Shown in pieces: positions 16,750 through 31,721 of a stretch of DNA of 48,943 bases; the first letter of the stretch is position 1, and the number at the start of each line of letters is the position of its first letter. The notes below the pieces were generated by a model. The model worked only from the letters and a program-made list of their open reading frames with translations, ran no database searches and had not been told where the DNA came from. Origin of the DNA: Eubacteriales bacterium (GTDB taxonomy: Bacteria > Bacillota > Clostridia > Oscillospirales > QAKW01); the NCBI GenBank assembly GCA_045544795.1, contig JAZPZR010000123.1, positions 1 to 48,943 of the forward strand, written 5' to 3'. The position numbers were made by a program, and so were the translations under genes.

Positions 16750-16971
16750 ATGATTTTTTTGGAACGATATCCGTATTATCCGCCCGGCTTTATGCGTGCG
16801 GAGCAAACGATAAATATAAACAAAAACCCAACCGTCTGCGACGAGCTTCCGCTTGCGCAGGCAACTATCGGCGTGCAGAAATGGCGCGAAATATATGAGC
16901 GCGATAAAGCGCTCATGCGCGGAACGCTCTTTTGTGAGCTTGATAAGCCGTTTCGGGGGTCGTCAAGATGA
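16750..16971 (+). CDS. cotJA: spore coat-associated protein CotJA
   Basis: 73 aa; LPLAQATIGVQKWREIYERDKALMRGTLFCELDKPF matches the CotJA signature. First gene of a cotJABC arrangement. The exact start is uncertain. Confidence 0.75.
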   Translation: MIFLERYPYYPPGFMRAEQTININKNPTVCDELPLAQATIGVQKWREIYERDKALMRGTLFCELDKPFRGSSR

Positions 16972-17231
16972 ATGACAGAAAAAAGGCGCTCATGCGGGTG
17001 CAGACCTACGGCTTTGCACTTGACGAGGTATTGCTTTTCCTTGACACTCACCCGAACGACCGCGAAGCGCTTGACTATTACCATGAAACGCTTAAGCTTT
17101 ATAAAATGGCGGTAAAGGACTACGTCACAAATTACGGTCCGCTTGATTTTATGCAGGTGCAGGGCGGTAAAAACTGGACGTGGGCAACCGATATGATGCC
17201 GTGGGAGGATGAGCATAATGTGGAAATATGA
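16968..17231 (+). CDS. cotJB: spore coat protein CotJB
   Basis: 87 aa; FALDEVLLFLDTHPNDREALDYYHE is typical of CotJB. 4-nt overlap with cotJA. Confidence 0.8.
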   Translation: MNDRKKALMRVQTYGFALDEVLLFLDTHPNDREALDYYHETLKLYKMAVKDYVTNYGPLDFMQVQGGKNWTWATDMMPWEDEHNVEI

Positions 17232-17406
17232 AAAAAGACTGCAGTATCCGCTTAAAATAAAAAAGGGTGACGGCAATACTGCGAAAATAATAATGTCGCA
17301 GTTTGGCGGACCTGACGGAGAGCTTGCCGCTTCGCAGCGTTATCTTTCGCAAAGATATGCGATGCCCTACAGCGACGTAGCAACACTTTTAACTGACGTG
17401 GGCACC
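17218..17406 (+). pseudogene. cotJC: cotJC 5' segment (codons 1-63), interrupted by the integrated element
   Basis: MWKYEKRLQYPLKIK..GGPDGELAASQRYLSQRYAMP..LLTDVGT is a CotJC/Mn-catalase-family N-terminus with SD gggagga. Similarity ends at 17406, and the rest of the tracked ORF (to 17493) is antisense to the recombinase gene. Confidence 0.9.
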
Positions 17407-19046
17407 TTCGTTTCTAAAGCGGTACACTTGTATGTAGGAGCCACCGTTTTGGATACGGTGAACCTCCATTTTTCGGGCAGAATATTTAGGTAAAGGTCAA
17501 CAGTATTCTTGTCAACAATCACCATCTTATCAAGAATGCGCTTGTAGAATTCATCCTCATACTCAACGCCGTTTACAAGGTCGATGATTGCCTTTTCAAT
17601 ATCCGCAAACAACTGCTCTTGCTGAACCTTCAAGGTGTTGCCATTGGTGATACTGTCAATTTGGGTCTTGATGTCAGTCATCACTCCGTCAATCTTTTCA
17701 CGTTCTGCAAGAAACTCCCCTTTGTCAATGTTACCCTCCATATACAATTCCAAAAGCCGACTGCGCTTGCTGCTCATTTCATCCAGCTTCTTTTGAAGCT
17801 GTTTTGTACTGCTATTCAGCGATTGATCGGAAAGTACAGATTTTATGACTTTTAAAAGATTTCGGGTGATTTTCTCACGGTTGAATTTTAGGTTTTTCAC
17901 CGCAAGATACATAATGTGAATGGCTTCTTCATTGCGAATGCTTGGACTTGTACAACCCACTTCATTACCTGCTTTGTCAAGGTGTTTGCTACCGTGCTTT
18001 GCCGCCTCACCACAACGCCACGCCTTGTATCTGCTACCGTTTTGACGTGGTTTATAACGTGCAACATAACTTCTGCCACAAACTCCGCATTTGATTTTTC
18101 CCGAAAATGGATAGCGGTTAGAGTGTTTAGCTTTGCCTTCCGGCGAAAGAGCACGCCCATCTAAAATGCGATTAGCCTCCTCAAACATTTCTCTTGAAAC
18201 GATCGGCTCGTGATGGTCTCGGATGATGACAAATTCCTCCTCACCGTGATTGTACTTTTTTTCGTGAGTCAAATAATCGGGAGTGATTGTTTTCTTCTGT
18301 ACAAGGTCACCACAATATTTTTCATTGCGCAGGACTCTCAGTATTACGGTGTTACTCCATTCCTGCACCCTTAACGGTTTTATTCCTTCTTCACGGAGCT
18401 CTCTTGCAATGGTGTGAGTACCTTTTCCCTCATTGATGCACTTGTGGTATATCAAGCGCACGATTTTTGCGCCTTCTTCATTGATTGTCATTTTACCGCC
18501 CTTTACATCATAGCCTAACATATCTCGACCAAAAACGACACCATCCTCCATACGTCGCTTCTGACCCCATTTCACGCGTTCCGAAGTTCTTCGGCTTTCG
18601 TCTTGGGCAAGAGATGCCATTATGGTTAATCTCAACTCTGCATCGGGGTCACGGGTATCGAGATTATCCAGGACAAAAATCACACCTACACCGTATCTTT
18701 TCAATTCTCTTGTGAAGCTTATGCTATCAAGGGTATTACGGGCAAATCTTGAAATTTCTTTTGTGATGATCAGATCAATCTGCCCATTCTTTGCACATTC
18801 GATCATCCTTAAAAATTCCTTGCGGTGTTTGGTGCTTGTGCCCGAAACACCCTTGTCAGCAAATATCTCCGATAGCTCCCAATCGGGATGATTTTCAATG
18901 TATTCTTTGAAATACTTTTGCTGACTCTCGTACGAATTCGCTTGGTCTCTGTTGTCTGTACTAACACGGCAGTAGGCGGCTACCCGTTGTACCTTGTTTT
19001 CAAATTTTCGCTCTTGGTTTAAAAGCTCATATTTGTCTAAACTCAT
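17367..19046 (-). CDS. large serine recombinase (integrated-state isoform, 559 aa)
   Basis: Resolvase catalytic N-terminus (VAAYCRVSTDNRDQANSYESQ), recombinase domain, zinc-ribbon Cys cluster (CGVCGRSY..WRCGE) and coiled-coil. SD aaggag. The last 9 codons plus the stop lie in host cotJC DNA beyond attL. Confidence 0.92.
   Translation of the reverse strand: MSLDKYELLNQERKFENKVQRVAAYCRVSTDNRDQANSYESQQKYFKEYIENHPDWELSEIFADKGVSGTSTKHRKEFLRMIECAKNGQIDLIITKEISRFARNTLDSISFTRELKRYGVGVIFVLDNLDTRDPDAELRLTIMASLAQDESRRTSERVKWGQKRRMEDGVVFGRDMLGYDVKGGKMTINEEGAKIVRLIYHKCINEGKGTHTIARELREEGIKPLRVQEWSNTVILRVLRNEKYCGDLVQKKTITPDYLTHEKKYNHGEEEFVIIRDHHEPIVSREMFEEANRILDGRALSPEGKAKHSNRYPFSGKIKCGVCGRSYVARYKPRQNGSRYKAWRCGEAAKHGSKHLDKAGNEVGCTSPSIRNEEAIHIMYLAVKNLKFNREKITRNLLKVIKSVLSDQSLNSSTKQLQKKLDEMSSKRSRLLELYMEGNIDKGEFLAEREKIDGVMTDIKTQIDSITNGNTLKVQQEQLFADIEKAIIDLVNGVEYEDEFYKRILDKMVIVDKNTVDLYLNILPEKWRFTVSKTVAPTYKCTALETKVPTSVKSVATSL
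17398..17406. repeat. attL core (GTGGGCACC)
   Basis: Identical to 31302..31310, at the point where cotJC similarity stops. Confidence 0.85.
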
Positions 19047-19496
19047 AATAAAAACTCCTTAATGTATAATGAAAGCCGAGATGTTACTCTCGGCTGTTGT
19101 TTTCTTCTCTATATGTTTTCTCGATTCTTTCTATGCAGGTATTCATCTGTTGCGGTGAAAGCAACTTGTTTTCTTTGAGCGATATCAAAATCGCTGTAGC
19201 AATTTTCAATTCCGCTTCCGGAGTGTTCACCTCCGGAATTACGCCAAGGTCATAATTCTTGTATTTCGTGAAAACACCCCCTACTGCAAATATATGATAA
19301 GAGGCTTCTCAATATCATAATATATGCTCATAAATCAAGTTATATCGGGGGCAATATTCAATTTTCTAAATATTTGCCCGCAAATTTAAGTGAAATTTGA
19401 GAGCAATGTGGTATAACCACAAGCCGAAGGATGCTTTACACATTCTCATTCCTTCGGTAACTTCCCGACTCTTTCATCGGGAACTTTAATTGATAG

Positions 19497-19814
19497 TTAA
19501 ATTGCTTTAATCATAACGACACGGGAGCGAAGTTCCGGTGTCTGTGCACCATCTTTTACGATAAAAACAACTTTTTGACCGATCAAATCGTCATCAACGA
19601 AATTTCCTTCTTCATCAACAAAATCTGAAGCAAAATCATTGAATATAGGGTTTATGGTTGAGAACGACGTGTTGAAGATAGCATTATCTGTACGGATATC
19701 TACAGCAAAATAACCTTTATCCTCATAAAAATCGATTTTCTCAACTGTTCCGGTATATCTACCTTCTTCTAAATAGTTAGTGTATTTCTGGGGTTTAAAA
19801 TTAAATGTAGCCAT
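19497..19814 (-). CDS. hypothetical small protein (105 aa)
   Basis: Start moved to the ATG at 19814 with SD aaggagaca, 13 nt after the helicase stop. No family recognised. Confidence 0.65.
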   Translation of the reverse strand: MATFNFKPQKYTNYLEEGRYTGTVEKIDFYEDKGYFAVDIRTDNAIFNTSFSTINPIFNDFASDFVDEEGNFVDDDLIGQKVVFIVKDGAQTPELRSRVVMIKAI

Positions 19815-19827
19815 AATATGTCTCCTT

Positions 19828-21606
19828 TCAATTTTCAATAATGGCATTAGTGAATTCTTCAAACAAATCAATATCACCAAGTTCCGCTTCAATATCTCTT
19901 TGCGGTGCTTTGGTGGATTGATTTTGAATTGAGTTTTCGAGCTTGAAACAATAGCATTTCTGCCGTCCAACCTCTTTTACCAAAGTTACCCTTTTATAAA
20001 GCCTATCCGGCTCTGTTAGTAAAACATCTTGATCTTTCAGCGTTTTAAGTACGCCTTTCCAATCATTTACGCCGTAGTCTTCCATCATATCCTCAAACAC
20101 CGTTTGTGATATCTGAATTTCGCTGTACTTATACTTGGTTTTGATGGCTCCACAGCAGGATGATGGTACAACGTTGGTATCAATCATATAGCGTGAACTA
20201 TTTCGGCTGACCTCTTGACGAACAATCTCAAGCAAACGGTCTTCCGGTTTGGCTGCTGTAGTGATTTGCCTTTCTAATTTCAAAAGATAATCAGCAATAT
20301 CATCCTCGTTGATACCCATTTGAAATATGTCATTGACGTAACGTGCCGTAGTAAGTACAGTCGCAAGCTTTGAAAGAATACGCTCGGAAAGCTCTTTTTT
20401 ATCTGTACACTTATCGCAAAGATATTTTTTATCCTTTTCGTAATCATCAAAAACATCGTCGCCCTTTTGAAGCAAGTACTTTACAAAAGGTTCACCTGCG
20501 AGGGCATAATTCTCATAAATGCAAGATTTAATGTTATCACTGTTCTCCGCACTATCGGTCAAAGTATCTTTAATTTCAAATACGCGCGCCTTTATTCCAT
20601 TAGGTGTATCCGCTCCTGAAACGAGACTAAATTCTGCTGTTGAAATTACTATTCCATTAAATTCCATGACATCTTTCTGCGTGGCATCACCATTCAATCT
20701 CATTTTTGTTCGTCCGTTACAAACGCTGTACATTGTTCGGTTGAAGTCCTTAATATTACTCAACGCAACCTCATCAATAACAACCGTATGACCACCACAA
20801 CTCGAAATAAACTGGTTTAAAGCGTTCTCTGTTGCATTGTACGATATAGCACACCCACGATTCAAAATAGGGTTGGAAAATGCACTTATAGCCATTTGGG
20901 CACCAGTTGTTTTTCCCTTTGAACTTTTATTTGATAACGAAAACATTATGCTGGATATATCTTTCTTTTCATTTAAAAGAGCTACAAGAGCACCCGCAAA
21001 TCCAAGAAGCATAACTACTGTCATTGCTATACTTTTCAGTACTTCTGTTTTCACCATATTGAGCCATAATTCAAGTTCTCCGGTTGGCTTTAAATCAAGC
21101 TTTCCATCGAATTTTAATCCTTTATAAACGCCTTCGGCACTTAATGCAGAATGTCCCCTGAACAGTTTTATATCTCCATCCTTGCTCCATCCAAGTTTTG
21201 AATAAGAACGATTTATAGGGGCAATCCTTTCGCTTTTCAAAAGGTATTTCACCACTTTGTAGGCATCATCTTCAGCAAAGCGAACACCATACTTATATAG
21301 TTCCTTTACTCCAAGTTTGGTTAAAATATCGCAATCAAAAACTCTTTCGACTGCAGTCTTTCCGTCATAATATCGGATTTTTAGTTTTACTACGCCCGTA
21401 TCAGTCTCAACGAGCCTTTCTACCACCTCAATACCGGTAGCAAAAACCGTTATAGAATAATTATCATCTAATTTTGATAATTGACCAACCCAACGGTTGC
21501 CGTTAACATACGGAAAAACTGTTGTTTCACGCTTTAATCGTTCGTAATCTTCCTTGTCTATTGAGATAGTTCCCAAATGCTTTGCATCATCAATATTAAA
21601 ACTCAC
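19828..21606 (-). CDS. DUF927-like P-loop NTPase (putative SF3 replicative helicase or replication initiator)
   Basis: 592 aa; GTG start with SD aaggagg. Walker A SSKGKTTGA and Walker B HTVVIDEV. Size and layout resemble the helicase-type proteins of integrative elements. The family call is from memory. Confidence 0.7.
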   Translation of the reverse strand: MSFNIDDAKHLGTISIDKEDYERLKRETTVFPYVNGNRWVGQLSKLDDNYSITVFATGIEVVERLVETDTGVVKLKIRYYDGKTAVERVFDCDILTKLGVKELYKYGVRFAEDDAYKVVKYLLKSERIAPINRSYSKLGWSKDGDIKLFRGHSALSAEGVYKGLKFDGKLDLKPTGELELWLNMVKTEVLKSIAMTVVMLLGFAGALVALLNEKKDISSIMFSLSNKSSKGKTTGAQMAISAFSNPILNRGCAISYNATENALNQFISSCGGHTVVIDEVALSNIKDFNRTMYSVCNGRTKMRLNGDATQKDVMEFNGIVISTAEFSLVSGADTPNGIKARVFEIKDTLTDSAENSDNIKSCIYENYALAGEPFVKYLLQKGDDVFDDYEKDKKYLCDKCTDKKELSERILSKLATVLTTARYVNDIFQMGINEDDIADYLLKLERQITTAAKPEDRLLEIVRQEVSRNSSRYMIDTNVVPSSCCGAIKTKYKYSEIQISQTVFEDMMEDYGVNDWKGVLKTLKDQDVLLTEPDRLYKRVTLVKEVGRQKCYCFKLENSIQNQSTKAPQRDIEAELGDIDLFEEFTNAIIEN

Positions 21607-21678
21607 TTATAAGCCTCCTTTTCTTTATTCTCCGACGTGCTGTTACACACGCCGGAGTTATAAGTATATTTATTATTA

Positions 21679-22059
21679 TCAAAAAAATAATTCCGGATGT
21701 CGATACAGCTTTGTATAATACTTGATTTGCTCATCCGATAATGAGTAGAAGTCATCATCATCGGGAGGAGCAGAACATAAAAAGAACGTTCCGCAAACTA
21801 TATCGTAGACTTTACCATTTTCATCCCGTAATGCACGGTTTGGTGTAAGTCCAAGGTTTTTTCCCTCCTCGTTACAAATCAACGCTATAGAATCATCAAA
21901 CGGATATACGACTTGAAAATAATCGCCAACCACTTTCTGCATTGCGTCTAAAGTTTTTTCAATTTCCTTAACTCTGGGGACTTGAAAGGGTTCGATAACA
22001 AGTATTTTCATTTTGTTCTTCGTGGTTTTCTTCAGATTGTTCGTTGTTGGCATATACAT
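21679..22059 (-). CDS. DUF3846-domain protein (paralogue 1)
   Basis: 126 aa; SD aaggagg 8 nt upstream of the ATG at 22059. Clearly similar over most of its length to the ORF at 23211..23543 (shared ALICNEEGK.LGL..NRALRDE.G..YDIVCGTFFLCSAPPD). Confidence 0.75.
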   Translation of the reverse strand: MYMPTTNNLKKTTKNKMKILVIEPFQVPRVKEIEKTLDAMQKVVGDYFQVVYPFDDSIALICNEEGKNLGLTPNRALRDENGKVYDIVCGTFFLCSAPPDDDDFYSLSDEQIKYYTKLYRHPELFF

Positions 22060-22098
22060 TGTAATGCCTCCTTTTTGTTATATTTTTTCTCGTCTGCC

Positions 22099-22129
22099 AA
22101 AAGAAAAAGACCGTCCATATTGGACGGTC
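22099..22129 (-). terminator. intrinsic terminator
   Basis: Minus strand reads gaccgtcca-ata-tggacggtc followed by tttttctttt. Lies 40 nt upstream of the DUF3846 start. Confidence 0.8.
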
Positions 22130-22345
22130 GAAAGAGACTTATCGTATCTAACCCACATTATCAAGTTACCCCTCACGTGTTGTAGCAAATAGTTGTGTCC
22201 TACCTATACGGATTGGCAAAAGAATATAGCAAGGCTAAATACGGTTGTCTTCTTTCGACAGCCGAGTATGTAAGAGATGCTATATTCTCTATCATAGGGT
22301 TTTATTTAAAATCAGTTATCATTAATCATGTTCATTGTTGCATCT
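22099..22345 (-). ncRNA. candidate ~240-nt non-coding leader/sRNA (promoter to terminator, no credible ORF)
   Basis: Bounded by the promoter at 22353..22381 and the terminator at 22099..22129. An 11-bp stem (agaatatagca/tgctatattct, 22231..22290) encloses a second hairpin. Only 3- to 7-codon ORFs are present. Confidence 0.45.
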
Positions 22346-22352
22346 TGGTTAT

Positions 22353-22381
22353 ATGATAGCACGTGACGTTCAAAAAGTCAA
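22353..22381 (-). promoter_or_regulatory. candidate sigmaA promoter
   Basis: Minus strand: TTGACT, 17 nt, TATCAT. Confidence 0.5.
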
Positions 22382-22682
22382 ATGGTCGATTTTTAGGCAT
22401 TCGTCAAAATTACTAACACCTCCTGTAGCAGTCAATTAGGAAGCGGAGGGGATGATGATACTTTTTTAATGATTTTTTTCTGTTGTTTAGTATTCTGAAA
22501 AAATATTTTTTGTGCAATCTGCCATGAATTTTTCACGTTTTCTTAATCAGAAACGGGGATTTCCATCCTTTTCGGATAGTTTTCGGGGAGCTTTTGACCG
22601 CCATTTCCCTTTTCAAAAAAAGATCAACCCGAAAACCCGTTCTCCCAGAGCGTGCATTGGCACACTCCGGGGGGCTATGAAA

Positions 22683-23177
22683 TCAATCAAGTTTCAAGGG
22701 TTCTATTGTGAAATCGTGAGCAAGAGGACTAAGGGGATGGGCGTATGGCAGTCCTTTACGATCGACAAGAGTATAAAGTTTCTTTTTGTATGGTATGAGT
22801 TCGGTAAGCATTGCTGCTTTTTCATCCTGGTAGCTCGTTCCTCTACCAAAACAAACTAAAATACAATCTGCTTTTTCACACTCTTGTAAAATAATTTCTT
22901 TATTCTGCTTTGATGTTTTTTGATTATCCCCATAAATAGATGACGTAAGATTTACAATTGTCAAACTCCCAAAATCGTTTTTGACGGCTCCGTTTTTGCA
23001 CAACATCGTTGTTTGATCCATAATCAAATGATCCGCCGATGATGGAGCAGTCATAATAATTACCGCCGACTTTTTTCTATGATCCCACTCCATTTTAAGC
23101 AGAAACCTTTCGCTGTTCTTTTGATTAAAGATAGCGGTAGTGGTTATTGTAGATGTCTTTTCCACTAAATTACTCAT
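22683..23177 (-). CDS. DUF1643-domain protein
   Basis: 164 aa; ERFLLKMEWD..AVIIMTAPSSAD..DQT...SLTIVNL...HPLSP pattern typical of DUF1643. The family call is from memory. Confidence 0.7.
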   Translation of the reverse strand: MSNLVEKTSTITTTAIFNQKNSERFLLKMEWDHRKKSAVIIMTAPSSADHLIMDQTTMLCKNGAVKNDFGSLTIVNLTSSIYGDNQKTSKQNKEIILQECEKADCILVCFGRGTSYQDEKAAMLTELIPYKKKLYTLVDRKGLPYAHPLSPLAHDFTIEPLKLD

Positions 23178-23210
23178 TTTTAAAATCTCCTTTATATTTA
23201 ATCTTCTGTA

Positions 23211-23543
23211 TTACAAAAATAATTCTGGGTGTTGATACAGCTTAGTAAAATGCTCAATTTGCTCATTTGATAACGAGGAAAAGTTTTCTTCATCGGGTGG
23301 AGCAGAGCATAAAAAGAACGTTCCGCAAACAATATCATAAATTTCTCCACTTTCATCTCGTAAAGCACGATTAAGCGGAAGTCCAAGAAGTTTTCCTTCC
23401 TCATTGCAAATCAACGCTACTGAATCTTCAAAGGGATAGATCGCTTGAATATAACCGCCAACCTCTTTTTGCATTGATTCCAAAGATGACTCAATCTCTT
23501 TAACTTTGGGAGTTTGCATAGGTTTAATAACAAGTATCTTCAT
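23211..23543 (-). CDS. DUF3846-domain protein (paralogue 2)
   Basis: 110 aa; paralogue of 21679..22059. Starts 3 nt after the preceding gene. Confidence 0.75.
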   Translation of the reverse strand: MKILVIKPMQTPKVKEIESSLESMQKEVGGYIQAIYPFEDSVALICNEEGKLLGLPLNRALRDESGEIYDIVCGTFFLCSAPPDEENFSSLSNEQIEHFTKLYQHPELFL

Positions 23544-23545
23544 TT

Positions 23546-23884
23546 TTACCCCTCCATTAAATGTTCGAAATATTCCCTGCGACCAATGATATTGATCGCT
23601 CGGTCATTATCCAATACAATGCATGAATTGACAAAATTATTTCCAATATATTCTATCCACTCAAATCGGCTTTCATCAATCGGCATCGACAATCCAAATC
23701 CAAAATGATTATCCAAATCACTTTTAGAACTAATTAAATAAATCGCCCCAATGCTTTCAATCGAAGCATTGGGGCAGTATTCTTTATATTCTTCCAAAAG
23801 GTATTCTAAAAGATTTTTGATGTATGGAACGATCTCCTTTTCCGGCACTTGTTCCAAATGATCTAAACGTGTAATCTTAACCAT
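23546..23884 (-). CDS. hypothetical protein (112 aa)
   Basis: ORF tightly packed in the operon. Its ATG directly abuts the TAG of the upstream mini-ORF. No family recognised. Confidence 0.6.
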   Translation of the reverse strand: MVKITRLDHLEQVPEKEIVPYIKNLLEYLLEEYKEYCPNASIESIGAIYLISSKSDLDNHFGFGLSMPIDESRFEWIEYIGNNFVNSCIVLDNDRAINIIGRREYFEHLMEG

Positions 23885-24004
23885 CTATTTTCTTCTCCTA
23901 TTCCGTGGCGTTTTAGAACCGCAATACAATGAGATCGCCGCACTTGCTCCCATACCGAACGCTTCTAATGCCGCCTTTGATAGTCTTAAGAATAACGCTA
24001 TCAT
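23885..24004 (-). CDS. 39-aa hydrophobic peptide with an Arg/Lys tail
   Basis: MIALFLRLSKAALEAFGMGASAAISLYCGSKTPRNRRRK; SD aaggagg; ATGA overlap with the upstream mini-ORF. Below the ORF-track cut-off and hand-translated. Confidence 0.45.
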   Translation of the reverse strand: MIALFLRLSKAALEAFGMGASAAISLYCGSKTPRNRRRK

Positions 24005-24096
24005 TTTTCTTTCCTCCTTTTCGACCTTTCAAGTATTGCATCTGCTCCAATCAAAAGACCAAACACACTAAAAAATCCAATTAAGTAATATTTCAT
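24001..24096 (-). CDS. 31-aa single-TM peptide with a basic tail
   Basis: MKYYLIGFFSVFGLLIGADAILERSKRRKEK; weak SD gaaggt; translationally coupled (ATGA) to the next mini-ORF. Confidence 0.4.
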   Translation of the reverse strand: MKYYLIGFFSVFGLLIGADAILERSKRRKEK

Positions 24097-24120
24097 TTTT
24101 AAAACCTTCTTTCATTTAAG

Positions 24121-24159
24121 ATAAAAAATACACCCACTGTATTACTCAGTGGGTGTATT
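24121..24159 (-). terminator. intrinsic terminator after the collagen-like gene
   Basis: 12-bp stem atacacccactg/cagtgggtgtat followed by a T-run on the minus strand. Confidence 0.7.
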
Positions 24160-24163
24160 TTGT

Positions 24164-27100
24164 TTAACGTTTAAACTGTGGATAGTATGTATATCCACTA
24201 ACAGTTTCAGAGTTTTTCATCGTTTTAGCAATTTTAGCCGTATCTGATACAGATATGTTTGCCCAAGCGGTTGATGCTTGTATAACAAGATCAAGATTCA
24301 CTTTGACTGCACGCTTTTTCCAATCTGTTTCATTAAGGAAATCCACTTCAGTTAATCCGGCATTGTAGAATGCTTGTGTGTCTATTTGCGTTACCTTTTC
24401 GGGTATAGTGATATTTGCCAATGAGGAACATCCGTAAAACGCTTTTGCACTAATTGATGTGAGATTGTTAGAAAGTGTTACATCTGTTAACGCTTCGCAA
24501 TATGCAAAAGCACCCTGTCCCATTTCTGTTATCGAATTAGGCATAGTCACACTCTTTAAATATTTACAATTCTGAAATCCTCCTATAGCAATAGTTGTTA
24601 TTGGGATTCCGCCAAACGATTCGGGAATAACGACGTTTTCTATTATCTGCTTATAATCTGATTTGACTCCCACAGACAAAGTTCCATCACTCAAACGTGT
24701 AAAGCTTAACATTGTCACAGCGTCAGAATAATCGTTGTACGCTGGGCTGATTTTACCAAGATTGCTTTCAGTTCCATCTGTATATGTAATGATTAACTCG
24801 CCATTTACAATTTTGCTTTCTGCAATACCTCTACCATCAGCTCCGGGATCTCCTTTGTCACCCTTATCGCCTTTATCGCCTTTATCTCCCTTGTCACCTT
24901 TTTGACCTTTAATATTGCCGAGGTTAATAACAGATGTATCGGTCAAGGTAACCGAAAGATCTCCGTCTGCAGACAATGTAATGGTATCAATTCCGACTCC
25001 GTTTGTACCTTCCTTACCATTTGCACCATCTTTTCCATTGTCTCCAACCACTTTTCCTACGGTGGTTAATGTTCCATCTGAGAAACCTAATACCAGTTCA
25101 CCATCTGTGTTAATAGCGGATGACGTAACACTAACACCATCTTCACCATCAATACCGTTTGTTCCCTTGATATTTCCTAAATCAATGATCGTACCATTTG
25201 TGAGTTCAATTTTCAAAACGCCTTCCGTAATAGTGACGTTTTTAACGCCTACACCATCGGTACCGTTTGCGCCATCTTTACCGTTGGATCCATTGGCACC
25301 TACCACCTTACCTACATTTGTGCTATTACCATTGGAATAGGTGAGCACAAGTTCTCCAATTTCATTGATTTTAGAAGAAACAATGCTAATACCGTCTTGA
25401 CCGTTAATACCATCAGTCCCCTTAATATTACCTAAGTCAATAATAGAACCATTGGTCAATTCGATTTTTAAAATGCCATCAGTAATCGTTGCGGTTTTAA
25501 TACCAACGCCATCTGTGCCGTTAGTACCATTTGTTCCATTAGCACCGTCTGCGCCATCGGCTCCCACCACCTTGCCAACATTGGTACTATTGCCGTTGGA
25601 GTATGTAAAAACAAGTTCACCATTAGCGTTGATTATAGCAGAGGTTACACTAATACCATCTGTGCCATCGGCTCCTTTTACGTTGCCGAGAGTCAAAATC
25701 GTTCCATTGGAAAGCTTTACAGTCAAAATACCATCATCGGACATTTCAACAGTATCAATGCCGACACCGTCTTTGCCATCTTGACCGTCGGCACCATTTG
25801 TGCCATCAACACCGTCTTTTCCGTCCTTGCCGTTGGTACCATCTTTACCGATAATATTGCCTAAATTCAGATCATTACCGTTAGAAAACGTAAGCACTAA
25901 CTCTCCTGATGTATTGATGGTTACATCAGATATTCCTATTCCATCTTTACCATCAACACCATCGGCTCCGTCTTTACCATTTGTGCCATTAGCACCATCT
26001 TTACCATCAGTACCGTCAATACCATCCTTGCCGTCTTGACCGTCTGCACCTACAACTACACCGAGGTTTTCATTTGTGCCGTTGGAATAATAAACAATCA
26101 ATTCTCCGTTAGCATTAATTTCAGTTTTTGTAACACTAATTCCATCTTTACCATTGGTGCCATCAACGCCGTTTTCACCATCTTTTCCTACGACCACCCC
26201 AAGATTTTCAGAAGTGCCATTGGAATAGGTAATAACAAGTTCGCCGTTTTCATTGATTGTGGTATTACTTACACCAATACCATCTTTACCATCGGTTCCA
26301 TCGGCTCCGTCCTTGCCGTTAGATCCATTTATACCATCCTTACCGTTGGAACCGACAACTATTCCAAGATTTGCAGAAGTTCCGTCCGTATAGGTAATTA
26401 TAAGTTCACCGGCAGTATTGATTTCAGTTTTGGAAACACCGATGCCGTCTTCACCGTCAACACCATTTTTGCCGTCTTTGCCATCTTTGCCGTCTTGTCC
26501 GTCTGCGCCATTAGTACCATCTTTACCGTCAATACCATTGATACCATCTTTTCCATTAGTACCGTCTTTGCCTACAACAACACCAAGATTGGTAGAAGTA
26601 CCATCAGAATAGGAAATAACAAGCTCTCCGTAGGAATTGATAGTTGTACCGGAAACACCTACGCCATTTAGTCCGTCTTTACCATCCGTGCCGTCGATGC
26701 CATCCTTTCCATCTTTGCCGTTAATACCATCTTTGCCATCGGCGCCCTTGATATTTCCAAGCTTTAGAGTAGAACCATTAGTAAGGGTGATTTCCAACTC
26801 TCCGGTCGTGGTAACTACAATAGAACCAATACCGACACCATCGGCACCATCCTTACCATCTATACCATTAACTCCATCTTTACCATTAGTACCATTGATG
26901 CCATCTTTTCCATCAATACCATTGACCCCATCTTTTCCGTCCTTACCATCGGCACCGATAACGACTCCAAGATTCTCAATAGTACCATTGGAGTAGGAAA
27001 TGATAAGTTCACCTTTTTCATTGATAGTTGTATCGCTTATACTTACGCCATCTTGACCATTTGTGCCGTTGGCACCATCACTTCCAATAACAATTCCAAC

Positions 27101-28513
27101 ATTCTCGGTTTTTCCATTGGTATAAGTAATGACAAGCTCGCCGTTTGAATTGATTTCTGTTTTTGATACACCGACTCCGTCAGTTCCATTTATACCGTCT
27201 TTTCCGTCAAGTCCATCTGCTCCGTCCTGACCGTTTGCGCCATCTTTACCATCGGCTCCAATCACAACACCGAGATTTTCTATTTTATTGTCGGAATAAG
27301 TTAATACAAGTTCACCTTTAGAGTTGATTTCAGATTTAACAATACTTACGCCATCTTGTCCGTCTGCACCATCAGTACCGTCTTTACCGTCCTGACCATT
27401 CGTTCCGTTCGTACCATTGATGCCATCTTTACCGGCAGCACCAATTACATTGCCAAGGTTAGAACGTTGATTGTTTGAATATGTCAAAACAAGCTCACCG
27501 TCAGAATTGATCTCTGCGCCGATAACACTAATGCCATCTTTTCCGTTTGTGCCATCAGTTCCATTTTGACCGTCAGCACCGATTACAACGCCGAGATTCT
27601 TAATAGTGCCGTTAGAATATGTAAGTACCAATTCTCCGGAGGTATTAATCGTTGACTCAACAATGCTGATTCCATCAATACCGTTTACACCATCCTTGCC
27701 ATCGGTACCGTCAATACCATCCTTGCCGTCAGCACCATCAACACCATTTGTTCCATTTATGCCGTCTTTGCCATTTGCACCGATAACTACACCCAAATTA
27801 GCACTCTGACCATTAGAATAGGTCAACACCAATTCGCCTTTTTCATTGATTGAAGACTTTGTTACACTAACACCGTCAACACCGTTCATCCCAACAACTT
27901 TGTCAAGATTCACAGTTTTACCATCGGAGAACGACAAAATAAGTTGACCATTATCATTGATGGTTGCAGATGTAATTCCAATGCCATCCTTGCCATTGGC
28001 ACCATCTTTACCATTGGCTCCATCTTTGCCATTTGTGCCATTAGTTCCGTCTTTTCCGTTCGCACCATCGGCACCGTCTTTACCTACTGCGACACCTAAA
28101 TTAATCACAGAGTTATCAGAAAGGGTAATCAAAAGCTCCCCTTTAGATGAAAATGATGCTGTTTTAATCGTAGTTCCCACTTGCTCGTTTCTCGCTTGCA
28201 ATGAGGCGAGCCACTCTTCTTCTGTCCCACTATATCCATTTTCAACTGCAATTTCATAAGCGGATTTTCCATTCAAGGAATCAAGCCACTCCTGAACAGT
28301 TCCGGAATATCCGTGTTGAACAGCCAGCTCATATGCCGACAATCCATTTTCTACTGTTGTTGAAGCAGGTACAGAATTACCTTTGAAGAATGAAGCAATT
28401 CCAAAACCACCGCCGATAAGCAAAAGAATTATAATTACTGCAACTAACAGTATCTTTATCAAATTATTTCTCTGCTTTTGTTCTTCTTTTCTTTCCATTT
28501 CTGTATGTTCCAT
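24164..28513 (-). CDS. membrane-anchored collagen-like repeat protein with a C-terminal BspA-type leucine-rich-repeat domain
   Basis: 1449 aa. N-terminal TM helix (LIKILLVAVIIILLLIGGGFGIASFF). Two SAYE(L/I)AV..GYSGT..EWL.SL motifs as seen in tail-fibre-like proteins. About 22 alternations of a G-X-Y run (GKDGxNGxDG...) with a ~20-aa module (GELVLTYSNGxxxNLGVVxG), then GDKGDKGDK. C-terminal LRR (FQNCKYLKSVTMPNSITEMGQGAFAYCEALTDVTL...). Confidence 0.9.
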   Translation of the reverse strand: MEHTEMERKEEQKQRNNLIKILLVAVIIILLLIGGGFGIASFFKGNSVPASTTVENGLSAYELAVQHGYSGTVQEWLDSLNGKSAYEIAVENGYSGTEEEWLASLQARNEQVGTTIKTASFSSKGELLITLSDNSVINLGVAVGKDGADGANGKDGTNGTNGKDGANGKDGANGKDGIGITSATINDNGQLILSFSDGKTVNLDKVVGMNGVDGVSVTKSSINEKGELVLTYSNGQSANLGVVIGANGKDGINGTNGVDGADGKDGIDGTDGKDGVNGIDGISIVESTINTSGELVLTYSNGTIKNLGVVIGADGQNGTDGTNGKDGISVIGAEINSDGELVLTYSNNQRSNLGNVIGAAGKDGINGTNGTNGQDGKDGTDGADGQDGVSIVKSEINSKGELVLTYSDNKIENLGVVIGADGKDGANGQDGADGLDGKDGINGTDGVGVSKTEINSNGELVITYTNGKTENVGIVIGSDGANGTNGQDGVSISDTTINEKGELIISYSNGTIENLGVVIGADGKDGKDGVNGIDGKDGINGTNGKDGVNGIDGKDGADGVGIGSIVVTTTGELEITLTNGSTLKLGNIKGADGKDGINGKDGKDGIDGTDGKDGLNGVGVSGTTINSYGELVISYSDGTSTNLGVVVGKDGTNGKDGINGIDGKDGTNGADGQDGKDGKDGKNGVDGEDGIGVSKTEINTAGELIITYTDGTSANLGIVVGSNGKDGINGSNGKDGADGTDGKDGIGVSNTTINENGELVITYSNGTSENLGVVVGKDGENGVDGTNGKDGISVTKTEINANGELIVYYSNGTNENLGVVVGADGQDGKDGIDGTDGKDGANGTNGKDGADGVDGKDGIGISDVTINTSGELVLTFSNGNDLNLGNIIGKDGTNGKDGKDGVDGTNGADGQDGKDGVGIDTVEMSDDGILTVKLSNGTILTLGNVKGADGTDGISVTSAIINANGELVFTYSNGNSTNVGKVVGADGADGANGTNGTNGTDGVGIKTATITDGILKIELTNGSIIDLGNIKGTDGINGQDGISIVSSKINEIGELVLTYSNGNSTNVGKVVGANGSNGKDGANGTDGVGVKNVTITEGVLKIELTNGTIIDLGNIKGTNGIDGEDGVSVTSSAINTDGELVLGFSDGTLTTVGKVVGDNGKDGANGKEGTNGVGIDTITLSADGDLSVTLTDTSVINLGNIKGQKGDKGDKGDKGDKGDKGDPGADGRGIAESKIVNGELIITYTDGTESNLGKISPAYNDYSDAVTMLSFTRLSDGTLSVGVKSDYKQIIENVVIPESFGGIPITTIAIGGFQNCKYLKSVTMPNSITEMGQGAFAYCEALTDVTLSNNLTSISAKAFYGCSSLANITIPEKVTQIDTQAFYNAGLTEVDFLNETDWKKRAVKVNLDLVIQASTAWANISVSDTAKIAKTMKNSETVSGYTYYPQFKR

Positions 28514-28523
28514 AATTTTTACC

Positions 28524-28823
28524 TCACTTATTGTTTTGGTCTATATTCTCTTTAAGGATCTTTTTGATCCATTTTTCGGTGTAACCGTATTTTAGAGCAA
28601 GTTGCTTAACATTGTAACCGTTGTATTCTTCAATGATTTGCTTTCTTATGAATTCTCTACTGAACAAATCCACAGGGAAGAATATCTGTTGACCTCGGTA
28701 TGTAGAATGAATTTTCAACACCGCATCAATTCCAATTAAATTCGCAAGTTCACTATATGCGGAATTTAGATACTCTCCTTTAATAACCTTGGGATCCATC
28801 GACACTCGTAATTCACCTCTCAT
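28524..28823 (-). CDS. Mor-family transcriptional activator
   Basis: 99 aa; C-terminal HTH ..YNGYNVKQLALKYGYTEKWIKKIL.. typical of Mu Mor/C-like activators. Ends 10 nt upstream of the collagen-like gene. Confidence 0.7.
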   Translation of the reverse strand: MRGELRVSMDPKVIKGEYLNSAYSELANLIGIDAVLKIHSTYRGQQIFFPVDLFSREFIRKQIIEEYNGYNVKQLALKYGYTEKWIKKILKENIDQNNK

Positions 28824-28929
28824 TTTTCGACACTCCTTTCTAAATTATATTACTATTTATAGGAACTGTGTAGAGCCGCACTTCCCCGAATAGTTCCTTG
28901 TAAAATTCCATAGTTTTCCTAAAGCAAAC

Positions 28930-29037
28930 AGACGACAATCCGGTCTTTGCGCACAGAAACACGGTTGCACGCTACTAAAGCGTGCAGGTTTCGTGTTTCG
29001 ACAGTTTTAACTGTTGCGCAAAACCAAATTGTCGTCT
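28930..29037. other. 108-nt nested inverted-repeat structure (candidate origin, oriT or structured RNA)
   Basis: Perfect nested stems: agacgacaat/attgtcgtct (10 bp), tttgcgca/tgcgcaaa (8), gaaacacg/cgtgtttc (8), tgcacgct/agcgtgca (8), plus the side hairpin acagtt-tt-aactgt. Confidence 0.6.
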
Positions 29038-29058
29038 CAAATAAAAAAGCACCCGACA

Positions 29059-29087
29059 TTACCTACCGTGTGCTTCAAGATTATAAT
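29059..29087 (+). promoter_or_regulatory. candidate promoter with a conserved spacer motif (twin at 36406..36434)
   Basis: TTACCT, 17 nt, TATAAT. The spacer ccgtgtgcttcaag is identical to 36413..36426. Confidence 0.45.
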
Positions 29088-29165
29088 ATGTATTCAAGAT
29101 TTTCTATGATCCAATGTTTTTTGTTTTAAAAACCTCAATATTTTTTTGAATTTTTTCAACAAAAG

Positions 29166-29194
29166 TTGCATTTTTGCAACTTTTAATATATAAT
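29166..29194 (+). promoter_or_regulatory. near-consensus sigmaA promoter with an overlapping operator palindrome (HD operon)
   Basis: TTGCAT, 17 nt, TATAAT. The palindrome aagttgc-N6-gcaactt (29163..29182) overlaps the -35. Confidence 0.6.
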
Positions 29195-29257
29195 ACAGGT
29201 GAAATATGCTGAATTAGTTTGTCTAAGTTCTGGCAAAATCACTTGAAAGGGGAATGT

Positions 29258-30547
29258 ATGTATCAATTTAGAGATCCTATCCATGGATTTATCAATGTAT
29301 CTGATGGCGAATTAAAAATCATAAACTCTTTCCCTTTTCAAAGGTTAAGAAATATACGTCAATTAGCAACTACATATCTTGTTTATCACGGTGCAGAACA
29401 TACGAGATTTGGACATTCATTAGGAGTTATGCATCTAACCTCTCGCGTTTTTGATTCTATCACAAGGAAAGTTCCCAACCTTTTTTCTGATGATGAAAAG
29501 GAAAATGAAATTAAAATTCTTTGGTATCGTCAAATCTTGAGACTGATCGGTCTCACTCATGATCTTGGACACGCACCTTTTTCTCATGCTTCAGAAGAAT
29601 TATTTGAAGATGGAAAGAAACACGAAGATTATACTAAACAAATTATATGCGAGACTGTTGTTGCTGATCATATAAATGAGATAGGTAAAAAGTTTCAAGA
29701 ACAATATGGTCCCACATATGAAATCACACCTGAGCTCATTTGGATGATTTATGACGGAAAAGATGTAGCAAATGAAAAATTTATAATGCCGGACTTTCTT
29801 TTTTTGAAAAGCTTTATGGATGGCGAATTAGATTGCGACAAAATGGATTATCTTCTCCGTGACTCGTTGTACTGCGGTGTTACATACGGCAAATATGATT
29901 TGGATAGATTTGTTTCAACGTTAACAGCCTATAAATATAAAAAAGAAAATCGTTTGCAAATCGCCATTGAAAGAGGCGGTGTGCAAGCTTTAGAAGAATT
30001 TGTTTTAGCTCGTTATTTTATGTTTATCCAAGTCTATTTTCACAAAACAAGAAGATATCTGGATAAAGCACTTTTTAGTGCGATGCAAGCAATTCTTCCA
30101 AATAAAAAATTCCCTATTGATACAAATGAGTATTTACAATGGAATGATAACCGTATTCTTAATGAAATTGCTTCATCAGCAGCAGATGAAGTTTTATCCT
30201 TTAAAAACAGAAATATTATGACTTGCGTTTACGAGTCGCCAGCACACGCTGAAGCTTCCACAAAGTTCCTTTTAACTACGTTAAGAGAGAAATATGGAAA
30301 AAATATCTTATGTGATAATGTAGACAAAGCGGCTCATAAGCTCAGCCCCGCACTCTTATCTCGTAAAGACGATAGTGGTAAAGGCATTATGATTTACGAT
30401 GAGAAAACTGGCGATGTCACTAATATTATGGAGGAATCTATCATCTTAGGTTCTATTATAAAGCCTATTAGCATCAAAAGAGTTTATGCTGTTAAAGAAA
30501 TAGCTGACGATGTAATTGCAACAATAAAAAAACTTAGTGCAGAGTAA
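29258..30547 (+). CDS. HD-domain dNTP triphosphohydrolase-like protein (SAMHD1/EF1143/YwfO type)
   Basis: 429 aa from the ATG at 29258. FRDPIHGFI...FQRLRNIRQL....GAEHTRFGHSLGV, HDLGHAPFSH and DCDKMDYLLRDS are the hallmark motifs of this HD subfamily. Confidence 0.85.
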   Translation: MYQFRDPIHGFINVSDGELKIINSFPFQRLRNIRQLATTYLVYHGAEHTRFGHSLGVMHLTSRVFDSITRKVPNLFSDDEKENEIKILWYRQILRLIGLTHDLGHAPFSHASEELFEDGKKHEDYTKQIICETVVADHINEIGKKFQEQYGPTYEITPELIWMIYDGKDVANEKFIMPDFLFLKSFMDGELDCDKMDYLLRDSLYCGVTYGKYDLDRFVSTLTAYKYKKENRLQIAIERGGVQALEEFVLARYFMFIQVYFHKTRRYLDKALFSAMQAILPNKKFPIDTNEYLQWNDNRILNEIASSAADEVLSFKNRNIMTCVYESPAHAEASTKFLLTTLREKYGKNILCDNVDKAAHKLSPALLSRKDDSGKGIMIYDEKTGDVTNIMEESIILGSIIKPISIKRVYAVKEIADDVIATIKKLSAE

Positions 30548-30573
30548 CAATATATTATAAGGAGGTAGGAGTA

Positions 30574-31062
30574 ATGGTAAATAATAATGCTATCATCAAT
30601 ATAATTCATAAAATAACAGCAAAAAATACTGCTCCTTGCAAAAAAACTTTGCAAAAAATCGTTTTCTTAATACAAGCAAAAGGTGAAGATTTAGGTTGCG
30701 ATTATGGTATTCACTTTTTCGGTCCATATAGTGCCGATCTTGATTATGCAGTACGTGAACTAAGCGATGAAGGTGTTTTAAACACCGCATATACTTCAAT
30801 GGTACATCGTATTTCCGTCGCAGAAGAAGCAGAAATACAAGAATATCACAATGCAACAGTAGATTCTGTAGTAGACGAATTTGCAGGGGACACTCCCAGT
30901 GAGTTAGAACTCCTCGCAACCGCTCTTTATGCATATATAAGCCTAAAAGATATATCTAAAATAAAACCTACTGTTATTAAGATTAAAGGATCAAAATATT
31001 CTGAAGCTCGAATCGATTCTGCAATAAAACGATTGAAAAAAATGAATTATATATCTGCATAA
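30574..31062 (+). CDS. small partner protein, YwgA/Panacea(DUF4065)-like (tentative)
   Basis: 162 aa; strong SD aaggagg, 26 nt after the HD gene. KKTLQKIVFLIQ...FFGPYSADLDYAVRELSDEG resembles winged-helix phage-associated antitoxin-type domains. The family call is from memory. Confidence 0.55.
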   Translation: MVNNNAIINIIHKITAKNTAPCKKTLQKIVFLIQAKGEDLGCDYGIHFFGPYSADLDYAVRELSDEGVLNTAYTSMVHRISVAEEAEIQEYHNATVDSVVDEFAGDTPSELELLATALYAYISLKDISKIKPTVIKIKGSKYSEARIDSAIKRLKKMNYISA

Positions 31063-31066
31063 CTTA

Positions 31067-31098
31067 ATCCCCCGAAGTTACATACTTCGGGGGATTTT
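31067..31098 (+). terminator. intrinsic terminator of the HD operon
   Basis: atcccccgaagt-tacat-acttcgggggat followed by tttt. Confidence 0.8.
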
Positions 31099-31309
31099 AA
31101 AATGTTTCCGGTACAGATACAAAAATTCGAATCGTTTTAGCCTTTCCACGCTTTTTGACTGTGGGGTGTTCAGAGAATTCTACCTGATTTTCTACACCGT
31201 ATCGGATCACCTTGTCACGTGTCTTAATCGTATCTACAAGAAAGCCGAAAAAGCGGGGCTTGTCCGTTTTATAAATAGAATGGAACATTTCCGAGCATAA
31301 GGTGGGCAC
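31097..31309 (-). other. latent 3' coding segment: 67 codons that become the recombinase C-terminus after excision/circularisation
   Basis: Stop-free 70-codon frame that begins inside the attR core, in the same phase as the recombinase frame crosses the attL core. No SD of its own. Confidence 0.55.
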
Positions 31310-31310
31310 C
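31302..31310. repeat. attR core (GTGGGCACC)
   Basis: Identical to 17398..17406, and cotJC similarity resumes immediately after it. Confidence 0.85.
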
Positions 31311-31721
31311 GAAGAAATGGCTCATATGGAAATGGTGTGCGCCATGATTCAGATGCTGACGCGCGATCTTTCTACTACCGAGATCGAAAAGGCGGGGCTT
31401 GCACCCTACTTTGTCGACCATACGATAGGACTCTGGCCGCAGTCGTCGGGCGGACTTGACTTTTCAGCAAGATACTTTCAGTCAAAGGGCGACCCGATAA
31501 CCGACCTCACCGAAGATATGGGCGCAGAGCAAAAGGCGCGTACGACCTATGATAATATCTTAAGACTTATAGACAATCCCGACGTAAAGGATGCAATAAG
31601 ATTCCTTCGCGAGCGTGAGATAGTCCATTTTCAACGCTTCGGTGAAGCGCTTCGTAACGTGACCGAGCGTCAGGACAGTAAAAACATCTACGCGATAAAC
31701 CCCGCGTACGATAAAAAATAA
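31311..31721 (+). pseudogene. cotJC: cotJC 3' segment (136 codons plus stop)
   Basis: EEMAHMEMVCAMIQML...QSKGDPITDLTEDMGAEQKARTTYD...FLREREIVHFQRF is the CotJC/Mn-catalase-family C-terminal two thirds. In phase with 17218..17406. Confidence 0.9.

Follow-up and report, generated by a model that had tools for sequence, protein, structure and literature searches.

The main unsolved question about large serine integrases is how their directionality is controlled, a question that limits their use in genome engineering, and to our knowledge the natural large serine recombinase (LSR) systems described so far all rely on a separate recombination directionality factor (RDF). Here we describe a 13,895-bp element in a stretch of 48,943 nucleotides from a Eubacteriales bacterium (contig JAZPZR010000123.1; the whole stretch is called the window), which interrupts the spore-coat gene cotJC and whose LSR open reading frame (ORF) contains the crossover point, the integrated and free forms encoding different C-termini. 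In Tn4451/Tn4453, an LSR element of Clostridia, a promoter for tnpX is assembled across the circular joint, which alters expression of the recombinase; there it is a promoter that is completed in this way, here a coding sequence. Attachment (att) sites inside integrase genes have been described before. In Mx8, attP lies inside the integrase coding sequence, integration gives a recombinant gene with a new 3' end (IntP/IntX), and passages of the same source, citing Tojo 1996 and Magrini 1999, describe the prophage integrase as active but altered (PMC6070905). In SSV-type fuselloviruses att lies within the int gene, which is changed by integration (PMC5861418), and in the integration-dependent immunity of BPs, Brujita and their relatives attP lies in an ORF whose viral and prophage forms differ at the C-terminus (PMC3694055). 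LSR elements that interrupt mother-cell sporulation genes include skin (SpoIVCA), SPbeta (SprA-SprB), gin in gerE and yin in yabG; the abstracts and passages of these sources assign directionality to a separate RDF and make no mention of a recombinase ORF that crosses an att site (PMC4191935, PMC5499854, PMC5595907, PMC10747680). Finally, engineered C-terminal fusions of integrase and RDF are functional, and the Ccr-type LSRs of SCCmec (staphylococcal cassette chromosome, SCC) have additional C-terminal strands on DBD2, which may hinder access to the RDF site (PMC12286644).

The element in the window shares with Mx8 an att site inside the integrase gene and a 3' end that is changed upon integration, and by its layout the gene should work like IntP/IntX. 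The enzyme is not of the Mx8 family, as judged from its domains: Mx8 Int is a tyrosine recombinase, whereas the window enzyme is a serine recombinase. Its target also differs, being a protein-coding sporulation gene read antisense, and so does the exchanged segment, a module of 60-70 residues conserved across many lineages. While the SSV tyrosine integrase gene is split in two, the window enzyme exchanges only its last ~10% and keeps its catalytic and DNA-binding domains intact. The initial annotation had likened the locus to integration-dependent immunity, and the likeness holds for the logic, in that the state of the DNA sets the form of the protein, but not for the parts: there a repressor is split, a degradation tag is removed and the integrase is of the tyrosine type, whereas here the split gene is the recombinase, of the serine type. 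No repressor is found at the window junction, and the exchanged tail ends in ..VPETF, not in an ssrA-like ..AA, and is too long and too conserved for a tag alone. With the skin- and SPbeta-type elements the window element has in common an LSR at one element end and a precise excision that would rebuild a sporulation gene; those elements have a separate RDF assigned to them in the passages cited above. No RDF was identified in the window, and a promoter scan was uninformative on sporulation control.

As in the Ccr-type enzymes and the engineered fusions, the element would present an LSR with a C-terminal polypeptide that may control directionality, and it also has an SCC-like Cch/DUF927 and DUF1643 core (DUF927, HTH_56 of Cch and DUF1643 are all present). 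Those appendages are constitutive, whereas the one described here would be attached and removed by recombination itself. Measured by the CcrB and CcrC family cut-offs of 900 bits, the window recombinase falls far short at 127 and 121 bits, respectively, and the target is cotJC, not rlmH/orfX as in SCC. Full-text literature searches found no report of an LSR with an ORF spanning attP and no description of cotJC as a target of intervening elements, and the passages seen of a large LSR survey contain no mention of an ORF-spanning attP. Att inside an integrase gene, state-dependent C-termini and LSR elements in sporulation genes were already known.

The recombinase contains the Pfam domains Resolvase (PF00239, 1.3e-34, residues 22-170), Recombinase (DBD1; PF07508, 3.7e-23) and Zn_ribbon_recom (DBD2; PF13408, 5.1e-10) and matches a PHROG integrase at 3e-131. 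The motif ..YCRVST.. is kept in all homologues, and an AlphaFold2 (AF2) model of low overall confidence predicts long helices at residues 413-492 between the zinc-ribbon strands, as for the inserted coiled coil of LSRs. In the integrated state the gene reads aag gtg ccc acg across the attL core, in the K-V-P-T frame proposed by the initial annotation, and then ends in the antisense strand of cotJC (Table 1). The ends of relatives, '(V/L)P(T/I/M)SV..', resemble that of the window because they are likewise read from antisense cotJC. At the other end of the element, a frame of 70 codons on the minus strand (31309 to 31097) is open in the recombinase phase, starting with gtg ccc acc inside the attR core and closing with TAA at 31099-31097. 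Joining the two ends in silico into the circular form gave a recombinase of 617 aa instead of 559 aa, as had been predicted from the first inspection, with the predicted junction peptide ..ALETKVPTLCSEMFHSIYK and the attP crossover ten codons upstream of the stop of the integrated form. The central claim made at that time, that the crossover swaps nine host-encoded residues for a 67-residue tail, is further strengthened by a frame that is open and under strong purifying selection in the closest relatives. Transcription of the cotJ genes does converge on the 3' end of the recombinase gene, the 5' part of cotJC being read from the plus strand and the recombinase from the minus strand.

The length of the open frame is itself unusual: when the local sequence was shuffled 20,000 times, only 0.8% of the products were open over at least 67 codons. 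The comparative evidence for coding is far stronger. Window-type tail DNA was compared at six further places (L002, which shares a contig with L009; L003; L004, with two copies; L005; and L092), and the frame is open at equal length in all of them. Pairwise ratios of nonsynonymous to synonymous substitution rates (dN/dS, omega) among the window, L002, L003, both L004 copies and L005 were 0.05-0.17 over tail codons 9-67, which lie beyond the part of the tail that doubles as a putative recombinase binding site. Changes pile up at the third codon position (for example 6/5/25), the other two sense frames give ratios mostly of 1-2.6, and all three antisense frames contain stops in most homologues. 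The dN of the tail was 0.09 between the window and L003, next to 0.14 for the recombinase body between the window and L026 (on the contig of L003), and between the window and L009 omega was 0.05 for the recombinase body and 0.11 for the tail. By these measures the tail evolves as a protein, under a constraint equal to that on the enzyme body; in other tail subfamilies, for which there are little data, omega was 0.29-0.66.

Further afield, a profile built from four tails retrieved 55 clusters of small ORFs, and an exhaustive hidden Markov model search of 1.84 billion representative proteins gave 175 tail clusters at 50% identity, of which 89 fell below 1e-10. The tail homologues align almost without gaps and share a common end position. 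A run of 70 open codons is conceivable in DNA of 41% GC, given the proportion of shuffles that achieve it, and the tail has been lost in several lineages; the idea of a chance ORF or of a decaying, functionless gene fragment is nevertheless refuted by the low dN/dS, obtained with synonymous sites saturated, and by a length and end point conserved through hundreds of clusters, and we give it practically no weight. Two candidates were rejected on these data: a chance ORF, ruled out by dN/dS and conservation, and a gene read from the opposite strand or in a different phase, ruled out by the antisense stops and by ratios mostly at or above 1 in the other sense frames.

Relatives in which enzyme and tail occur as a single ORF are known. 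In P0020 (locus L001) the two form one ORF of 632 aa, whose tail is ~40% identical to that of the window, without gaps and with the same end; others are P0086 (618 aa, L085), P0024 (590 aa) and the fragments P0210 and P0377. These contiguous ORFs come from metagenome contigs assembled in the attP configuration, and a comparison with full-length relatives, suggested when the frame was first noticed, thus finds a homologous tail attached in P0020, P0086, P0024 and P0210. Within the clade of the window (at least 69% identity), all elements with both ends sequenced (the window, L009, L026 with L003, and L008) have recombinase and tail in the same V-P-T phase and a tail of 67 residues; the phase also matches in L020, where the tail has 72 residues. 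Two reading classes of attP can be distinguished, f0 (..NISEAS-LPT-EASEMFH..) and f2 (..EMEHFRGF-ST-QRSSGNVP..). Relative to f0, f2 has one additional nucleotide in the recombinase gene just upstream of the P arm and its tails lack one nucleotide just downstream of the P' arm, and with these paired +1/-1 indels flanking attP the body of the enzyme and the body of the tail share one frame in both classes. In L123, a whole f2/f2 element, the two ends match, and in L096 the frame is continuous from enzyme to tail on a single DNA molecule. Where a junction is contiguous, agreement of the frames is to some extent trivial, the P and P' arms being read in one frame there, and our test of frame covariation between enzyme and tail was partly successful, few contigs holding both ends.

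The tail could instead be a separate small protein, for instance an accessory or RDF-like factor acting in trans, whose gene abuts attP and whose continuity with the recombinase frame is incidental or serves translational coupling. Most tails of the first frame class do have an in-frame ATG, as this would require, but in 8 of 8 elements this ATG has no useful Shine-Dalgarno core, whereas most element genes have strong ones: cores of at least five bases precede 10 of the 13 window genes scored, and cores of 3-4 bases are found at cotJA, cotJB, cotJC and the HD gene. The ATG is replaced by AAG in L003 and is absent from tails of the second class, and since it sits inside the P' motif GGAAATGTTCC, its conservation elsewhere is accounted for by the DNA site. 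An independent small gene was disfavoured on these two grounds, the missing Shine-Dalgarno sequence and the unconserved ATG, and the contiguous recombinase-tail ORFs and the compensating indels around attP speak against it as well. Three observations described in the next paragraph point the other way (the arrangement in L094, the out-of-frame tail of L114 and the tails of recombinase-less cassettes), and on balance we consider a separate protein unlikely.

A number of results weigh against a tail that serves as an in-frame part of the recombinase. Homologue, viral, metagenome, phage and plasmid searches yielded no natural attP form with the tail subtype of the window: a homologue search with the 617-aa query gave close relatives only in the integrated form, viral contigs had no match for the tail, metagenome contigs yielded two loci, the sole close tail relative (L092) being integrated in cotJC, and phage and plasmid collections held only integrated or distant LSRs. 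The 617-aa protein is for this reason a prediction. The tail is moreover lineage-specific. The closest relatives keep the frame open, but many of those at or below ~68% identity show the stops foreseen as a possible objection at the outset, and distant cotJC elements, with recombinases of 44-68% identity, are often short-tailed or stopped: the frame closes 3-30 codons past the core in L031, L036, L048, L049, L057, L060, L063, L074, L078, L080 and L081, and in L028, L031, L033, L036, L037, L038 and L039 a stop of the recombinase gene itself precedes the P arm. The tail is dispensable for cotJC targeting. The clearest exception to the matching of enzyme and tail frames is L114 (RAYE01000029.1; 10001-10228, 17222-17560), which has an intact f2 tail at attR and an f0 recombinase at attL and would, when excised, encode only an out-of-frame peptide of ~33 residues. 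L051 and L148 combine f0 recombinases with decayed f2 tails, and L030 is likewise decayed. In L094 (9960-10240; GCA_949006785.1, CARKEY010000005.1) the gene of a full-length recombinase closes with ..ACC CCC TGA, the TGA lying one base ahead of the ATG GAA CAT.. that opens an intact tail ORF of 77 aa, with a Shine-Dalgarno-like AAGGGG 11 nt upstream. Stop and start may overlap here, or the site may be one of +1 frameshifting or a fusion that has been broken, and the arrangement suggests that the tail can exist as a polypeptide of its own. Intact tail ORFs are also retained by recombinase-less cassettes in tandem arrays, and the structure predictions, being of low confidence (pLDDT, the predicted local distance difference test, of 59 and 62), are not reliable on docking.

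The tail has no match in Pfam, PHROGs or NCBIfam, and PDB sequences gave only noise (E = 0.6-0.9). AF2 predicts with moderate confidence two long beta strands in it, at residues 20-32 and 54-67, and pLDDT values of 58.9 for the 617-aa isoform and 62 for the tail alone were too weak for docking or a fold search. Conservation extends along all ~60 residues; G22 and P49 are nearly invariant, and there is an R/K-Y-G motif. As a whole, the observations are probably best explained by an in-frame tail that is joined to the recombinase in the circle only and works in cis as its accessory module. In the integrated state the gene ends in nine arbitrary antisense codons of cotJC and encodes 559 aa, and in the excision circle the same ORF would continue into the 67-codon segment from the opposite element end and encode 617 aa. 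The long enzyme would then be made by the free circle only, and integration would amount to a self-inflicted C-terminal truncation. With lower confidence, the tail may pack against the zinc ribbon and coiled coil, the region on which RDFs act, and the properties of the enzyme would then be set by the state of the DNA.

A different role would be that of a stability tag, the tail being mainly a C-terminal degron that makes the circle enzyme short-lived and leaves the chromosomal form stable, or the reverse. BPs-type phages lose a C-terminal tag on integration (PMC3694055), and this role would parallel the C-terminal tags that Rep and Int have in phages with integration-dependent immunity; small non-polar residues, moreover, close many of the tails (..AIPAA, ..AISAA, ..AVPDVA, ..AVASV). 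The C-termini vary by subfamily, though, with ..VPETF in the window and ..FQIAV, ..FDIAG or ..DDVYL in others, and a constraint acting throughout ~60 residues goes far beyond the needs of a degron, which makes this role quite improbable in our judgement. An accessory module acting in cis, and occasionally in trans, fits better than a degron with the conservation of the whole tail, its variable C-termini and the split in L094.

Since RDF fusions work and the LSRs of SCCmec have additional strands, a role of the tail in directionality or RDF sensitivity is plausible by analogy. Tentatively, in the version that we prefer but rate below even, the long form could be the circle's integration-committed, RDF-insensitive enzyme, while a switch to excision would be open to the truncated form made from the chromosome. 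The opposite sign is that of a fused RDF: after excision in the mother cell the long enzyme could not re-integrate, which would lock cotJC in its restored state. The target is indeed a mother-cell sporulation gene, integrase-RDF fusions are active for excision (PMC12286644), and passages on SPbeta report that its RDF, SprB, is required for stable expression of the rejoined spsM (PMC5499854). The truncated form would nevertheless have to carry out the first excision (attL x attR), and a circle whose enzyme is blocked for integration would be unable to become established in another host; we hold this model to be very improbable. A more general proposal, on which we are doubtful, is a self-toggling serine integrase, in which recombination attaches or removes a cis module that sets directionality or RDF sensitivity, without or beside a separate RDF. 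Whether the enzyme integrates or excises would then be programmed by the state of the DNA. If true, nature would have coupled a memory at the protein level to a DNA switch and spread it through gut Clostridia at the hot spot in cotJC. What the accessory-module reading already offers is a recombination event that would itself add or remove a conserved C-terminal module, and it makes testable the idea that C-terminal appendages on DBD2 tune the directionality, RDF sensitivity or lifetime of these enzymes.

Table 1. Coordinates in the window of the element, its att sites, the recombinase gene with its alternative ends, and the two parts of cotJC.
Feature	Position	Strand	Basis or remark
LSR ORF, integrated state, 559 aa	17367..19046	-	Pfam, PHROG
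Host-encoded recombinase end, SVKSVATSL + stop, 9 codons	17367..17396	-	antisense of cotJC N-terminal part
Element-encoded tail, 67 codons (LCSEMFHS...SVPETF) + stop	31097..31300	-	reaches recombinase ORF only at circular attP joint
Stable hairpin, 13-bp stem	31066..31096	-	starts one base past tail stop; -23.4 kcal/mol, z = -5.1
attL core, first GTGGGCACC direct-repeat copy	17398..17406	.	cotJC codons V64-G65-T66
attR core, second GTGGGCACC copy	31302..31310	.	repeat search of window
Inserted element, 13,895 bp	17407..31301	.	bounded by the two cores
cotJC 5' part, codons 1-66	17209..17406	+	Pfam, ORF joining
cotJC 3' part, codon 64 to stop	31302..31721	+	Pfam, ORF joining
P half-site of attP (approximate)	17407..17432	-	encodes recombinase ..YKCTALETK; attP reconstruction
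P' half-site of attP (approximate)	31280..31301	-	contains GGAAATGTTCC at 31292-31282; extent inferred

The boundaries of the element are given by the 9-bp sequence GTGGGCACC (plus strand), of which the window has exactly two copies (Table 1). It is a near-palindrome, GTG-GG-CAC, and we infer that its central GG/CC is the crossover dinucleotide. Joining 17209..17406 to 31311..31721 in silico restores an intact CotJC of 202 aa (Pfam Mn_catalase, 5.9e-52), so that the element interrupts a sporulation gene whose ORF precise excision would rebuild. The genes cotJA (16750-16971, PF11007) and cotJB (16968-17231, PF12652) directly precede it in a cotJA-cotJB-cotJC operon, and GC content is 38.5% in the element and 47% in the flanks.

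The features typical of LSR att sites are present as the direct repeat at the element ends, and palindromic arms are known from relatives: the symmetry of the attP arms about the centre of the core is visible in L001, and an inverted repeat GGAACATTTC...core...GGAAATGTTCC occurs in L001 and L085. In the window the P and P' arms are symmetric, by eye, at only ~10 of 20 positions. The P' copy of GGAAATGTTCC codes for the tail residues S-E-M-F-H, so that the first ~8 tail codons are doubly constrained, as protein and as a putative DNA-binding site. On the cotJC side of the core, within 31311-31335, there is a sequence GAAGAAATGG that lies ~5-6 bp nearer to the core than the related GGAAATGTTCC on the element side. 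In LSR structures the zinc-ribbon motifs are nearer to the centre in attB than in attP, and the spacing of GAAGAAATGG and GGAAATGTTCC would fit this.

The hairpin that follows the tail stop had been taken for a terminator. Its position directly after the stop and its stability stand, and it is shared with a converging gene on the plus strand (30574-31062), but it has no U tract, the terminator scan of the window made no call there, and it is not a canonical intrinsic terminator. It takes the place of a conserved stretch of ~25 nt, CCAAAAACATCGGATCATAGAAAA, which follows the tail stop immediately in L002 (7738-7765), L003, L004, L005 (10180-10330) and L092; in L005 and L092 the 3' end of the tail is also repeated in part ~100 nt downstream.

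A search with the recombinase gave 79 loci from gut Clostridia, ~75 of which are inserted at the same cotJC codons, V64-G65-T66, with the recombinase gene antisense to cotJC. Recombinase identity among the cotJC loci ranges from 44 to 98%, and the site is kept even at 44-48% (L006-L084, L101), a distribution by which codons 64-66 of cotJC are to be regarded as an insertion hot spot. Carriers belong to the Oscillospiraceae, Acutalibacteraceae, Lachnospiraceae and Ruminococcaceae, and cultured ones include Yeguia hominis, Dysosmobacter segnis, Flintibacter faecis, Oscillibacter valericigenes and Pusillibacter faecalis. Tails of the second frame class occur in Lachnospiraceae bacterium COE1, M18-1 and JLR.KK009, Parablautia muri D42-62 and Roseburia sp. 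1XD42-69. The elements make up an apparently undescribed large class that occupies a single codon triplet of cotJC in numerous gut Oscillospiraceae and Lachnospiraceae, frequently in arrays with anti-phage defence cassettes, with a bearing on spore biology and on the gut mobilome.

A sister lineage inserts at this cotJC site the other way round, with its central dinucleotide flipped and the core GTG GGC ACC in the recombinase sense. Its insertion creates an in-frame fusion of the recombinase to the C-terminal part of CotJC (688-698 aa, PF05067) and another of the N-terminal 66 residues of CotJC to the tail; examples are P0092, P0095, P0107, P0109, P0110 and P0118, P0198, P0250, P0261 and P0304, and L005 at 9790-10179. 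In other chimeric ORFs (P0183, P0195, P0052, P0054, P0106, P0178 and P0180) the tail or the recombinase is joined to unrelated host proteins, among them ABC ATPases cut at the Walker-B motif (..DEP|T), a thiamine pyrophosphokinase, an ECF sigma factor and a metallophosphoesterase. Such ORFs show that relatives target several other conserved coding sites, often in frame.

Some loci are tandem arrays of recombinase-less cassettes of 5-7 kb, in which a tail ORF comes first and a pseudo-P arm or a remnant of the recombinase 3' end comes last, a layout reminiscent of composite SCC arrays. They were found in L086 (937-1155, 7721-7924), L091 (124-354, 6782-6991), L096 (291-530, 5200-5406) and L004 (8384-8584, 14385-14585). 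Their cargo is anti-phage: AbiE with a CBASS system (SMODS/SAVED/Cap2/JAB), AbiE with a methyltransferase and a kinase, or AbiE with a dCTP deaminase/dUTPase.

The cargo of the window element comprises, besides the LSR, a DUF927/Cch-like primase-helicase, two DUF3846 genes, a DUF1643 gene, a Mor-like activator, a collagen-repeat/leucine-rich-repeat protein and an HD-domain protein. The SCC-like core lies at 19828-23884 on the minus strand and consists of the DUF927/Cch-type primase-helicase with HTH_56, DUF1643 and the two DUF3846 paralogues, the latter in a 300-nt direct repeat that is 79% identical (21677-21976 and 23209-23508); this core suggests that the excised circle may be able to replicate. 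The collagen-repeat protein, of 1449 aa (24164-28513, minus strand), contains ~20 collagen-like G-X-Y blocks that alternate with a repeated module of ~45 residues, ends in a BspA-type leucine-rich repeat at the C-terminus, and is the source of nearly all direct-repeat families in the element.

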